Origin: a phage
Reading direction: 5' to 3' (one strand)
Sequence record: PZ583743.1
DNA length: 64,000 nt
This document shows, piece after piece, positions 1,397-29,258 of the stretch. A program made the translations under genes and the position numbers. The notes beneath the pieces were generated by a model, which was not told the DNA's origin, did no database searches, and saw only the letters and a list, made by a program, of their open reading frames with translations. Position 1 is the stretch's first letter; each line of letters starts with the position of its first letter.

Positions 1397-1900
1397 TCAA
1401 GTATTGTAAAACATTTGATGCAATCGCTTATATTGCCGAATCTTTTGGTCAGAAAAAGAAATTTGAGTTTCAAGCCATTCAATGTACTCTGCGGCAGCTT
1501 GCATCAGGTTACCTTCATAGCCATCGTTATTTTCTTGCGCAGCTAATTTAGCTAATGCGTATGAAATACGTTCACCTTGAAAAGCGGCTTTAGGCTTCTG
1601 AACATCTTGGCTAGTTCTCTCTACAACTTCTTCAATTTCGCCATTTTCAACGGATTCAGTATTCCACAAACACCAGTATGTAATTGGCTTATCATAGATG
1701 TTAATAATCTTTCCGTCGGAAAGTTCAATTTCAATAATTCCAGTATCAGGTTCTATATCATCTTCACATTCTTTTGCAAGTTCACGAACTTTAAAGACAG
1801 TACCTGCACTAAGTTCCGGCCAGTAATTACATAGCCCTGTATCAACACGATTAATTCTAAACCACTTATCTACTGTAATCATGTCCCATCTCCATATCAA
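1397..1900 (-). CDS. Hypothetical protein, 167 aa (occupies the T4 pin / 49.x position)
   Basis: Track ORF; synteny between gene 49 and nrdC; function not recognised from sequence. Confidence 0.55.
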   Translation of the reverse strand: MIWRWDMITVDKWFRINRVDTGLCNYWPELSAGTVFKVRELAKECEDDIEPDTGIIEIELSDGKIINIYDKPITYWCLWNTESVENGEIEEVVERTSQDVQKPKAAFQGERISYALAKLAAQENNDGYEGNLMQAAAEYIEWLETQISFSDQKIRQYKRLHQMFYNT

Positions 1901-26694: not shown

Positions 26695-27258
26695 TTATTT
26701 ATCTAGTTTAGTTATTATAGCTTCTGCGGCAGCTTTTAGCTTAGATGCGGTGTTAATACGATTTTTAATTTCAGTATACGCATCGCCAAGAACATCAAGG
26801 CTATCAGAATAAACACTTACACTATTGCGTTCGCTATTTGAAATAGAACCTTTAGTTTTACGATCAAAATCGGTGTACACGTCTTGAAGATCACGGGCTG
26901 CCTTCTTTGCATCATCCAATGCATCAAGAGCTTTATTCAAAGCATTAACGTATTTTTTAGTGTCGAACATATTCTTAGAAATTTTAACAGGTGCACGTTC
27001 AGGAGTAGCTAAGGCAGATTTAGGAACCTGAGCGCCTGATGCTAATTTCTTAGAAATTTTGAAAAATGTTTTATTGAATTTATTTTCTTGACTCATCGTA
27101 AAAGAACTATTATCGATGTTATACATTTCAATAGCTTTAGCTTTCCACTTAAGAAAATCGCCCCGGTCTTTTGGGTCCAAGTGGAAGAATACTTTAGTAA
27201 GATCTGCTTCAGATGGTAATTTTGCTGCTTCGGTTAAAAATTCGGCATAAGTTTTCAT
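26695..27258 (-). CDS. Internal-protein-like protein, 187 aa
   Basis: Leader MKTYAEFLTEA; no T4 counterpart recognised. Confidence 0.6.
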   Translation of the reverse strand: MKTYAEFLTEAAKLPSEADLTKVFFHLDPKDRGDFLKWKAKAIEMYNIDNSSFTMSQENKFNKTFFKISKKLASGAQVPKSALATPERAPVKISKNMFDTKKYVNALNKALDALDDAKKAARDLQDVYTDFDRKTKGSISNSERNSVSVYSDSLDVLGDAYTEIKNRINTASKLKAAAEAIITKLDK

Positions 27259-27344
27259 TTAAAATCCTTGAAATAATTTATTGGTTATTAATTATTTATC
27301 ACGTTGTTATCATCCATGTTAGCATTCTCTGAGTGATTCAAACT

Positions 27345-27470
27345 AAAAAGCCCCAACCTTTCGGTCGGGGCTAAGCCTTGCGGCAACCTTGTCGGGGTTC
27401 CACCTGCTAAGGCAAGTGTTTGTACGAAACGCCGGGATTCGAACCCGGTTATTAAGTAGTTGACGCTACT
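27345..27470 (-). ncRNA. Putative structured stable RNA (tRNA-like arm, terminator at 3' end)
   Basis: Contains CCGGGTTCGAATCCCGG T-arm-like hairpin and ends in GCCCCGACC-GAAA-GGTTGGGGC plus T-run. Confidence 0.35.
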
Positions 27471-27479
27471 CAATATTTT

Positions 27480-27680
27480 TAAAAGGCCATATCTCGACCA
27501 TATCCGAACGTTCCGTCAAAAACGCTACTCGGCTTACGGCAAAGATATTTCCTCGAATCGATAATTCGGTGCGCCGTTTCTGCTGTGATAGTAAAGAATC
27601 AGAACACAGTAAAACTGTGGGAGAAACTATACTCCAGGGAACATCAGTCCGACGACTTACCGGTAGCGACCCGGTTTCTT
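27480..27680 (-). ncRNA. Possible second stable RNA
   Basis: About 200 nt with no credible ORF between the 116-aa gene and the first RNA; placement by analogy to T4 species C/D RNAs. Confidence 0.2.
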
Positions 27681-28029
27681 AGTATTCTTTTAAAGCATCA
27701 ACCTGTCCACGACGTTTACGCCATAAATCAATTACTTCATACGCAGATTCAGCATTTCGAATTGGACGGCATTTATATAAAGACTTGTGATTTTGATATT
27801 GTGTAGATAATGGAATTTTATCTAAAAGGTCTTTACGTTCAAAGTATTCGTAACCATCTAAACCAAATGAACGATTTTTGAGAAATTGCCAATGACCGTA
27901 TTCGTTTTCGACATAAACATAATCTGCATGCTGATAAAGTAAATTAATTACACGTTCAGAAATAACAGTGTCATTGTGATTAAAATAGAATGTTAAATCA
28001 TGAACTACTAAATAAACATTACCTTTCAT
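27679..28029 (-). CDS. Hypothetical protein, 116 aa
   Basis: Track ORF directly downstream of the tRNA cluster. Confidence 0.5.
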   Translation of the reverse strand: MKGNVYLVVHDLTFYFNHNDTVISERVINLLYQHADYVYVENEYGHWQFLKNRSFGLDGYEYFERKDLLDKIPLSTQYQNHKSLYKCRPIRNAESAYEVIDLWRKRRGQVDALKEY

Positions 28030-28045: not shown

Positions 28046-28121
28046 TGGTCGAGGCAGTAGGGATCGAACCTACGACCTAGGACTTAGAAGGTCCTTGCTC
28101 TTCCTTCTGAGCTATGCCTCG
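28046..28121 (-). tRNA. tRNA-Arg (anticodon UCU), CCA encoded
   Basis: Folds by eye: acceptor CGAGGCA/TGCCTCG, loop CTTCTAA, T-arm GTAGG-TTCGATC-CCTAC. Confidence 0.85.
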
Positions 28122-28125
28122 GATT

Positions 28126-28200
28126 TGGCGGACGTGATAGGATTCGAACCTATAACCAATCGCTTAACAGGCGATCGCTCTGCCATTGAGCTACACATCC
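28126..28200 (-). tRNA. tRNA-Asn (anticodon GUU), CCA encoded
   Basis: Acceptor GGATGTG/CACGTCC, loop CTGTTAA, T-arm ATAGG-TTCGAAT-CCTAT. Confidence 0.8.
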
Positions 28201-28204
28201 AAAT

Positions 28205-28291
28205 TGGTGGGGAGTGGTGGAGTCGAACCACCCGAGTCGCAATGACAATGGATTTACAGTCCACACCGCTACCTCTACGGGATAACTCCCC
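28205..28291 (-). tRNA. tRNA-Tyr (anticodon GUA), class II long variable arm, CCA encoded
   Basis: 87 nt; loop CTGTAAA identical to E. coli tRNA-Tyr; T-arm GGTGG-TTCGACT-CCACC. Confidence 0.8.
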
Positions 28292-28300
28292 AAATTAATT

Positions 28301-28375
28301 TGGTGGCCCTGGGTGGAATTGAACCACCATCTGGCGATTATGAGTCGCTTGCTTGAACCTTCCAGCTACAGGGCC
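28301..28375 (-). tRNA. tRNA with CAU anticodon (Ile2-lysidine type or Met), CCA encoded
   Basis: Acceptor GGCCCTG/CAGGGCC, loop CTCATAA; sits at the T4 tRNA-Ile position. Confidence 0.8.
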
Positions 28376-28376
28376 T

Positions 28377-28452
28377 TGGTGCTGATTGACGGAATCGAAC
28401 CGCCGACCTTCTCATTACAAGTGAGTTGCTCTACCTACTGAGCTAAATCAGC
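28377..28452 (-). tRNA. tRNA-Thr (anticodon UGU), CCA encoded
   Basis: Acceptor GCTGATT/AATCAGC, loop CTTGTAA. Confidence 0.85.
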
Positions 28453-28457
28453 AAAAC

Positions 28458-28547
28458 TGGCGGAGGCGATAGGATTTGAACCTATGAGTCGCCGGAGCGA
28501 CTGCCGGTTTTCAAGACCGGTGCATTAAACCACTCTGCCACGCCTCC
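28458..28547 (-). tRNA. tRNA-Ser (anticodon UGA), long variable arm, CCA encoded
   Basis: 90 nt; loop CTTGAAA; T-arm ATAGG-TTCAAAT-CCTAT. Confidence 0.85.
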
Positions 28548-28549
28548 AG

Positions 28550-28623
28550 TCTCCATACAAGGATTTGAACCTTGGACCTCCTGATCCCAAATCAGGCGCT
28601 CTACCAAACTGAGCTACACGGAG
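28550..28623 (-). tRNA. tRNA-Pro (anticodon UGG), CCA not encoded
   Basis: Acceptor CTCCGTG/TATGGAG, loop TTTGGGA; 3' end abuts tRNA-Ser (dimeric precursor arrangement). Confidence 0.8.
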
Positions 28624-28633
28624 TAAATTAAAT

Positions 28634-28707
<74 letters not shown>

Positions 28708-28712
28708 AAATT

Positions 28713-28799
28713 TGGTGCGAGAAGTGGGACTCGAACCCACAAGGAAATCATTCCGCAGCATTTTAAGTGCTGTGCCTTTACCAATTTGACCATTCTCGC
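28713..28799 (-). tRNA. tRNA-Leu (anticodon UAA), long variable arm, CCA encoded
   Basis: 87 nt; acceptor GCGAGAA/TTCTCGC, loop CTTAAAA. Confidence 0.85.
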
Positions 28800-28800
28800 G

Positions 28801-28873
28801 CTGGGAATAAAGGACTCGAACCTTTGCATCCTGGAATCAAAATCCAGTGCCTTACCAACTTGGCTAATTCCCA
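28801..28873 (-). tRNA. tRNA-Gln (anticodon UUG), CCA not encoded
   Basis: Acceptor TGGGAAT/ATTCCCA, loop TTTTGAT; 3' end one nt from tRNA-Leu (dimeric precursor arrangement). Confidence 0.8.
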
Positions 28874-28970: not shown

Positions 28971-29258
28971 TTACCATTTATGATAATACATATTTACGAT
29001 GCATTCAAGACCCAAAGGATTCTTGAAAATATCATATTCAAGAGGACCTTTTTCCGTTTCAATAAAGAAATCAAAATTTACTGTATTAAATTTACGGTCT
29101 TCCTTCACTAATTTAACTTGAGAAGATGAACGATCAATGTAAACCTTTTCAACTTCAAAACATGTTAAAATGCCATAATCATCAATCAAGGCTTTAGCTG
29201 CTTCTTGATCATATTTATATCCATTTTCAATGGATGATACTTTCGCATAAAGAATCAT
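28971..29258 (-). CDS. Hypothetical protein, 95 aa
   Basis: Track ORF. Confidence 0.5.
   Translation of the reverse strand: MILYAKVSSIENGYKYDQEAAKALIDDYGILTCFEVEKVYIDRSSSQVKLVKEDRKFNTVNFDFFIETEKGPLEYDIFKNPLGLECIVNMYYHKW

Follow-up and report, generated by a model that had tools for sequence, protein, structure and literature searches.

The rnaD-rnaC interval

The window analysed here is a 64,000-nucleotide (nt) stretch of phage DNA from sequence record PZ583743.1. On its minus strand, the interval 27683..27344 very probably encodes the orthologues of two stable RNAs of phage T4, rnaD (species 2) and rnaC (species 1), in a member of the genus Tequatrovirus. Positions 27300..27700 show 100% identity to Shigella phage CT01 and 91.5% identity to T4T (HM137666), where the matched stretch, directly 3' of tRNA-Arg, is annotated as misc_RNA rnaD (119 nt) and then rnaC (139 nt). 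A BLAST search of 50,697 phage records finds the stretch in 810 of them. Coordinates of the two RNAs were transferred by pairwise alignment with the T4T annotation. The rnaC sequences of this phage and T4T are identical at 138 of 139 nt, while the two rnaD sequences share their first 46 and last 22 nt but differ in the hairpin formed by about 45 nt in the centre.

An earlier note, made from the sequence alone, had placed two stable structured RNAs at the position of T4 species C and D, and the annotated rnaD and rnaC of T4T agree with this. The interval does lie, as described there, between the stop codon of an open reading frame (ORF) of 116 amino acids (27679) and the start of one of 187 amino acids (27258). 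The extent given, 27345-27680, was right as to location, although the RNAs plus terminator span 27683..27344, with the 5' end 3 nt farther. Since both RNAs are already known T4 genes, the interval is a rediscovery and its novelty is low. What is added is an architecture supported by covariation, a co-varying contact between two loops, and a documented gap in annotation. The features of the interval are as follows.

27683/27680..27568, minus strand: rnaD, about 113-116 nt; 5' boundary by T4 annotation, +/-3 nt, overlapping the stop codon of the 116-amino-acid ORF
27675..27659, minus strand: rnaD hairpin H1, ACCGG-GUCGCUA-CCGGU
27634..27590, minus strand: hypervariable apical hairpin of rnaD, window-type allele, containing CACAGUUUUACUGUG
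27567..27562, minus strand: rnaD-rnaC spacer GAAUUA, of AAUUA type
27561..27423, minus strand: rnaC, 139 nt, probable orthologue of T4 species 1, predicted tRNA-like four-way junction
27560..27554 (CGAUUCG) with 27431..27425 (CGUUUCG), minus strand: rnaC terminal stem P1, acceptor-like, 7 pairs
27553..27484, minus strand: rnaC P2, a 70-nt hairpin in the D-arm position, with an apical 6-nt loop UUGACG at 27519..27514
27475..27450, minus strand: rnaC P3, a 10-base-pair (bp) hairpin in the anticodon-arm position, with a 6-nt loop CGUCAA at 27465..27460
27448..27432, minus strand: rnaC P4, T-arm-like hairpin CCGGG-UUCGAAU-CCCGG
27422..27373, minus strand: 3' trailer, 50 nt, conserved; removed from mature rnaC by the T4 annotation
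27372..27349, U tract to 27344, minus strand: intrinsic terminator, AGCCCCGACC-GAAA-GGTTGGGGCT then TTTTT
27288..27473, minus strand: ORF of 61 amino acids with a TTG start, the only sizeable ORF of the interval

In T4, the orthologous rnaC occupies the same place after rnaD and is followed by the same trailer and the same terminator, and the RNA itself shows no material difference. The loci differ in that here the 116-amino-acid ORF separates tRNA-Arg from the two RNAs and segB is absent. The rnaD of T4 shares its ends and its helices with the one here, whereas the central segment is unalignable.

The fold of rnaC

The rnaC sequence folds at -50.2 kcal/mol (z = -4.56), and none of 200 shuffled sequences folds as well. 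Folding of the interval, which the earlier note had suggested as a check, also gives a low value for the trailer with its terminator (z = -4.31), which differs from T4 by one mismatch; rnaD alone, at z = -0.87, folds no better than shuffled sequence.

We assembled 23 distinct rnaC homologues from at least seven genera, the set covering Tequatrovirus, Mosigvirus, Karamvirus, Moonvirus, Gelderlandvirus, Kanagawavirus and unclassified Tevenvirinae. RNAalifold, applied to the first 19, returns the same fold as the minimum free energy of the single sequence, with a consensus of 46 pairs, 18 of them with compensatory changes. In an independent count, 98.4% of cells are paired, as against 39-47% when the partners are slid, and the observed pairing, compensation and covariation score were each reached by none of 500 shuffles. 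Extended to 23 sequences and with the loop-loop helix described below included, the count is 33 pairs, 98.2% paired, 17 with compensatory changes. Covariation thus shows rnaC as a predicted cloverleaf-like four-way junction, made up of P1, P2, P3 and a canonical T arm.

Each arm contributes to this result. In P1, about half of the homologues have G-C in place of the A4-U135 pair, and Yersinia phage MHG19 has C-G and U.G in place of the two U.U mismatches. No nucleotide separates P1 from P4, and P1 stacks directly on the T arm in the model. P2 is supported by covariation among the homologues and also occurs as a second, unrelated sequence type in EnC15, fGh-Ecl04, Melville, Kosakonia 305, Ursula, PEi20, NM4.3 and MHG19; the unrelated sequence keeps the architecture, namely lower stems of 3+6+6+5 bp, a 4-nt bulge, a 4-bp apex and a 6-nt loop. 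P3 has compensatory changes in nine of its ten pairs, and its dimensions, 10 bp with a 6-nt loop, are the same in all 23 homologues.

The earlier note had singled out a T-arm-like hairpin, and the minus strand indeed carries CCGGGTTCGAATCCCGG at 27448..27432. The middle pair of this stem, P4, varies among G-C, U-A and A-U, and the loop variants UUCGAAU, UUCAAAU, UUCAAGU and UUCGAGU all match the tRNA T-loop consensus. The motif GGTTCRANTCC occurs nine times in the window, where 0.09 occurrences are expected; these are eight of the ten predicted tRNAs and the P4 site. The CIP9 type (loci L010, L021 and L023) has the T loop UGCAUGC, containing the self-complementary GCAUGC, instead of UUCRANU. 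A GG dinucleotide three pairs into P2, in the first internal loop, is invariant except in this same lineage, where it reads CG. The joint loss of GG and T-loop motif is what a contact of the D-loop/T-loop elbow type predicts, and may possibly reflect one, although it is a single coincidence.

A covariance model built from the rnaC family, R1, has one match in the window, at 27423..27562 (158 bits, E = 5e-38). At marginal score R1 aligns an ordinary tRNA arm for arm, the acceptor, D, anticodon and T arms falling on P1, P2, P3 and P4, in a weak match. The likeness to tRNA (RF00005) thus lies in the four-way junction, in a 7-pair terminal stem stacked on a 5-bp stem with a UUCGAAU loop, and in the setting, since genes of the rnaC type sit in tRNA clusters with tRNA-like spacers. 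The differences are that a 70-nt hairpin replaces the D arm and that CCA is not encoded. Decoding by rnaC would be impossible, because its "anticodon" arm has 10 bp and a 6-nt loop where tRNA has a 5-bp stem and a 7-nt loop.

A predicted contact between the P2 and P3 loops

The P2 loop UUGACG and the P3 loop CGUCAA complement each other exactly, and neither varies among the first 19 sequences. Among the phages with the unrelated P2, seven of eight keep both loops, and the eighth, MHG19, has UUAGCG and CGCUAA, with two adjacent pairs changed on both sides. All six pairs of the loop-loop helix form in 23 of 23 sequences. Because the two loops are both complementary and co-varying, they are predicted to pair with each other, and there is good evidence from the alignment that the contact is real. 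A search of the phage collection for a close relative of MHG19 found none.

The contact could form within one molecule or between two, as a reciprocal dimer. The path through P3 (10 bp), the contact (6 bp) and the P2 apex (4-6 bp) measures 20-22 bp in all, close to the 19-20 bp of lower P2. As these two path lengths are roughly equal, closure within a molecule would be feasible with a kink at the conserved bulge. Kissing-loop complexes such as ColE1 RNA I/RNA II and the HIV-1 dimerisation site likewise have 6-nt loops with full Watson-Crick complementarity, and the difference is that in rnaC both loops belong to one molecule.

Structure and variability of rnaD

Since its minimum free energy is unexceptional, the structure of rnaD rests on covariation. 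The consensus of 18 homologues has 23 pairs, 97.6% paired, with compensatory changes at five, and its covariation score was exceeded by none of 500 shuffles. Covariation in this alignment shows rnaD as a small hairpin followed by a predicted long irregular hairpin, whose apical segment of about 45 nt is hypervariable among phages. The closing pair of H1 varies among A-U, G-U and G-C, and in Moon-like (L017) and CIP9-like (L021) loci H1 is replaced by UCCAUGA-GACG-UCAUGGA. The long-range helix pairs GUCGUCG with CGGCG(C)AC, with a compensatory change of G-C to C-G in the same two diverged homologues. A 4-bp helix shows a U-A to A-U exchange, and the base of the variable hairpin shows A-U to G-C exchanges. 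Features of tRNA are absent from rnaD.

The centre of rnaD occurs in three unalignable classes (T4/RB69, IME08 and window type) between identical flanks, and each class folds as a hairpin. The window-type allele is common to CT01, APTC-EC-2A and the IMG/VR locus L035. When the T4-like phage BW1 was adapted to E. coli ECOR34, the only mutation common to three lines lay in rnaD (PMC12685909). By coordinate mapping, which is uncertain, this single-nucleotide polymorphism (SNP) falls in the hypervariable hairpin.

A hammerhead ribozyme was considered for the CUGAUG...GAAAC of rnaD and rejected; the ribozyme needs CUGANGA and GAAA at a junction of three helices, and the core here reads CUGAUGU/CUGAAGU and has two flanking helices only. 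A hammerhead- or k-turn-like CUGA/GAAA internal loop was likewise rejected, as it is lost in Moon-like and CIP9-like rnaD and has no Rfam match to E = 10.

Trailer, terminator, transcription and processing

The trailer folds as a hairpin, CACUUGC-CUUA-GCAGGUG, and two small hairpins. Its conservation equals that of rnaC, and two trailer haplotypes keep an alternative long-range pairing, GCCUU/AAGGC in one and GCCUAG/CUAGGU in the other. The hairpin and U tract found at 27372..27344 bear out the strong minus-strand terminator of the earlier note: the stem has 10 bp, seven of them G-C, with a GAAA loop, as in intrinsic (Rho-independent) terminators. The only strong terminator is this one, after the trailer.

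No T4 late-promoter motif lies between the tRNA cluster and rnaD, the nearest being TATAAATA at 29212..29219 on the minus strand, upstream of tRNA-Gln. Because there is no nearer late-promoter motif, and because the sole strong terminator is beyond the trailer, rnaD and rnaC are probably co-transcribed with the tRNA cluster. One transcript would then run through the tRNA cluster, the 116-amino-acid ORF, rnaD, rnaC, the trailer and the terminator. A promoter for rnaD itself within the 116-amino-acid ORF was considered and is not supported. It would be the one weak sigma-70-like match, 27709..27681, and there are seven such matches as against 8.3 in shuffled sequence. A MotA-box-like TGCTTTA at 27697..27691 was also set aside, having no properly spaced -10 element and being absent from RB69.

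From this transcript, the tRNA-processing machinery would excise rnaD and rnaC, and the trailer and terminator would be removed. RNase P recognises the acceptor/T minihelix of tRNA precursors, its minimal substrate; as P1 and P4 form such a minihelix, the 5' end of rnaC may be expected to be a cleavage site of this enzyme. Both RNAs would be shortened from the 3' side by exonucleases as far as their terminal helices, which fits the T4 annotation, since both RNAs end there 1-2 nt past a helix. In T4, RNAC and RNAD were seen by northern blot as discrete late RNAs (PMC9697503), and positions 27561..27504 are identical to one of the two published template oligonucleotides for the RNAC probe of that study.

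Distribution and annotation in related phages

The rnaC of Karamvirus, Moonvirus and Gelderlandvirus is embedded in the tRNA cluster: tRNA-Trp and an AAUUA-type spacer precede it, CAAA and tRNA-Gly follow, and both trailer and terminator are lacking. The spacer follows the CCA of tRNA-Trp in Karamvirus and Moonvirus. In IME08 (Dhakavirus; L005, 1497..1700) and in five IMG/VR loci (L033, L034, L035, L036 and L037), it is exactly rnaC that is missing, and rnaD runs straight into the trailer and terminator. The junction between rnaD and trailer without rnaC reads ...GGCGCACCGA|ACACUUGCC... In a further IMG/VR locus, L032 (UViG 2706795408), a 507-nt insert replaces rnaC between rnaD and trailer, and carries the TATAAATA motif and an ORF of about 130 amino acids starting MLTYAEFL. 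Since they are present or absent, and placed, separately among the relatives, rnaC and rnaD appear to be independent, dispensable modules. A so-called insertion of about 560 bp in some BLAST matches is an extra internal-protein-like gene after the terminator, outside the RNAs.

Upstream of rnaC, six clusters of CIP9-like and Moon-like phages, NM4.3 and MHG19 (L010, L017, L021, L023, L158 and L159) have unannotated conserved elements that are not tRNAs. They comprise a diverged rnaD-like RNA, an element of about 155 nt closed by CCAGAGAG/CUCUCUGG, and one of about 85 nt closed by AAGUAG/CUACUU. A search of Rfam found no family match for these upstream elements.

Annotation of the two RNAs is sparse. 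In a sample of 60 records from the BLAST ranking for rnaC, four annotate this RNA and about 14 put hypothetical proteins over it, and CT01 leaves the interval without annotation despite the identity. In PG7 (L003), the 3' two-thirds of rnaC, at 1554..1648, is labelled as a 95-nt tRNA-Met both in GenBank and by ARAGORN.

Database searches and excluded identities

Searches of Rfam 15 found no family for rnaC or rnaD at gathering scores or at E up to 10, barring one 17-bit match to tRNA-Sec. The covariance-model search that the earlier note had recommended therefore came back without a supporting match, as Rfam 15 has no family for either RNA. ARAGORN finds no tRNA at 27344..27683, nor does Rfam model RF00005 even at E up to 10. 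The tRNA-Sec match of rnaC (RF01852) was rejected, at 17 bits against a cut-off of 47. The 8-bp acceptor pairing that a tRNA-Sec reading needs, ACGGAACG/CGUUUCGU, is broken in nine of 19 homologues and scores below all 500 shuffles. The 95-nt "tRNA-Met" that ARAGORN reports in PG7 relies on this same pairing, which covariation rejects. A tmRNA was also excluded, with none found by ARAGORN and none in Rfam.

No homologue was found in 5,426 complete E. coli genomes, searched for a host origin. More distant relatives were sought in IMG/VR with the word GAGTAGCGTTTTTGACG and the pattern AACGTTCGGATNNGGTNGAG, which returned T4-like contigs and a few chance matches only. A loose loop-loop pattern gave 120 chance loci, none of them matched by the covariance model, and a scan of metagenomes gave 67 loci, of which nine are real rnaC, all T4-type. 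Three marginal matches of R1 are ordinary tRNAs.

Among RNAs of other kinds, the tRNA-like domain of tmRNA, the YrlA Y RNAs, the tRNA-like RNAs of gammaherpesvirus 68 and mascRNA have a non-decoding acceptor/T-arm module, as rnaC does. Maturation by RNase P is expected for rnaC as in those RNAs. The difference is the predicted loop-loop lock between two arms in rnaC.

Possible functions of rnaC and rnaD

Paddock and Abelson reportedly determined the sequence of species 1 RNA in the mid-1970s, and RNase III is said to cleave this RNA in vitro; deletions of the T4 tRNA region are reportedly viable. Few orphan RNAs in molecular biology are as old as rnaC and rnaD, whose sequences date from the 1970s and which occur in hundreds of T4-like phages. 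The earlier note was right that the function of species C and D is still unknown: the biological roles are so described in a review of 2010 (PMC3014915), an omics study of 2022 that classes RNAC and RNAD as late RNAs (PMC9697503) and an evolution study of 2025 (PMC12685909). The gap in annotation is part of the same picture, with an Rfam model missing, CT01 left blank, hypothetical proteins overlaid and a tRNA-Met called in PG7. The terminal stem on the T arm, the two co-varying loops and the hypervariable tip of rnaD offer handles for experiments.

Our tentative preference is that rnaC may be a shape-based mimic of tRNA that binds a tRNA-recognising protein of host or phage. We rank this possibility above a cis-acting element, a base-pairing regulator and debris, because rnaC is left with no long conserved single strand and keeps the features of tRNA that a protein could read; the four together take up only part of the probability. 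A more specific version, which we hold to be doubtful, is that the mimic is locked by the loop-loop contact and acts as a decoy or sponge for a host reader of the T arm or elbow, the rnaD hairpin being a host-specific determinant. The acceptor/T-arm face, and possibly an elbow like that of D loop and T loop, would then be what is kept, and the candidate targets would include TruB, TrmA, a tRNA-directed defence nuclease or a processing enzyme. On this version the hypervariable hairpin of rnaD might be under diversifying selection. A nanopore study reports that the position-55 signal is lost in host tRNAs after T4 infection (bioRxiv 10.1101/2024.07.23.604651); we take this as a lead only, and treat the ECOR34 SNP in rnaD (PMC12685909) in the same way.

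Several points weigh against the picture of two structured RNAs with a tRNA mimic among them. The functional statement for rnaC is an extrapolation from structure, in which protein binding is a prediction only. Given the UGCAUGC loop of the CIP9-type lineage, recognition of the T loop cannot be a universal requirement. The compensatory change in the loop-loop helix comes from MHG19 as a single lineage, and so counts as one evolutionary event, and the co-change equally preserves an inverted repeat at the level of DNA. The RNA ends used here are those of the T4 annotation by homology, and the folding energy of rnaD is that of shuffled sequence.

Placement offers the first alternative, that the RNAs act in cis: as elements for processing, stability or termination they would shield the 3' end of the tRNA-cluster transcript or set the expression of neighbouring genes. 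In Tequatrovirus they come last in the operon, shortly ahead of the terminator, rnaD and the trailer form the 3' end in IME08-type phages, and the authors of the 2025 study treat the locus as regulatory (PMC12685909). We nevertheless think it unlikely, given that rnaC in Karamvirus, Moonvirus and Gelderlandvirus is equally conserved in mid-cluster, far from the 3' end, and that the mature RNAs accumulate in T4 as discrete species (PMC9697503).

The variability of rnaD suggests another possibility, small RNAs of the Hfq/ProQ type that pair with host or phage mRNAs, with the variable hairpin of rnaD or the loops of rnaC as seed. An apical domain that is hypervariable between phages would suit this, as would the SNP that arose convergently in three lines on ECOR34 (PMC12685909). 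It seems a little less likely again than action in cis: once its loops pair together rnaC has no conserved single strand, the invariant parts of rnaD are mostly within helices, and the mature RNAs lack a terminator U tail, the usual handle for Hfq, since the terminator is beyond the trailer.

Decay is still harder to reconcile with the alignment. If rnaC were a decayed tRNA gene and rnaD spacer debris, both would be stable, inert by-products of the processing of the cluster. The tRNA topology of rnaC and its place among tRNAs would follow, both RNAs are dispensable and absent from some relatives, and 50 years have passed without an assigned function. Yet 98% of the pairs have been kept through many compensatory changes across at least seven genera, along with two complementary 6-nt loops and a P2 architecture that is the same in two unrelated sequence versions, and rnaC is 138/139 identical to that of T4 while neighbouring sequence is unalignable. 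We regard debris as improbable.

The last alternative, that the 61-amino-acid ORF or another small ORF is a gene and the RNA structure incidental, is close to refuted and strikes us as extremely improbable: a 61-codon minus-strand ORF does exist and many GenBank records place a "hypothetical protein" over the stretch, but its TTG start lies inside helix P3 and its frame runs through the terminator, the substitutions are compensatory in helices and not patterned by codon, and in other genera tRNAs lie on either side of this sequence. The frame, moreover, ends at 45 codons in T4, and PG7 and KM16 lack its start codon and have in-frame stops; the earlier note had dismissed it for its overlap with the terminator and saw no credible ORF here, and its lack of conservation in the three phages upholds that judgement.

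Neighbouring genes

Three features flank the interval.

28873..28046, minus strand: tRNA cluster, ten genes
28029..27679, minus strand: ORF of 116 amino acids between tRNA-Arg and rnaD; phrog_3355, function unknown, no Pfam hit
27258..26695, minus strand: ORF of 187 amino acids, 3' of the terminator; phrog_2280, function unknown

The cluster reads Gln, Leu, Gly, Pro, Ser, Thr, a CAT-anticodon tRNA, Tyr, Asn and Arg, where T4T annotates eight tRNAs. The CAT-anticodon tRNA occupies the position of T4 tRNA-Ile, and the homing-endonuclease gene segB is absent between the tRNA subclusters. The stop codon of the 116-amino-acid ORF abuts the conserved start of rnaD; the ORF is present in RB69, APTC-EC-2A and several IMG/VR phages, and absent from T4 and from the IMG/VR loci L015 and L026.

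The gene 3' of the terminator varies among phages (L007, L011, L016 and L032), yet the N-termini are alike, with MKTYAEFL here and MKTYAQFL, MKSY.., MKTYNEFL and MLTYAEFL elsewhere. We take this type of N-terminus to resemble the capsid-targeting sequence of T4 internal proteins, and the label "IP-like" for the 187-amino-acid ORF is plausible on the strength of that resemblance.

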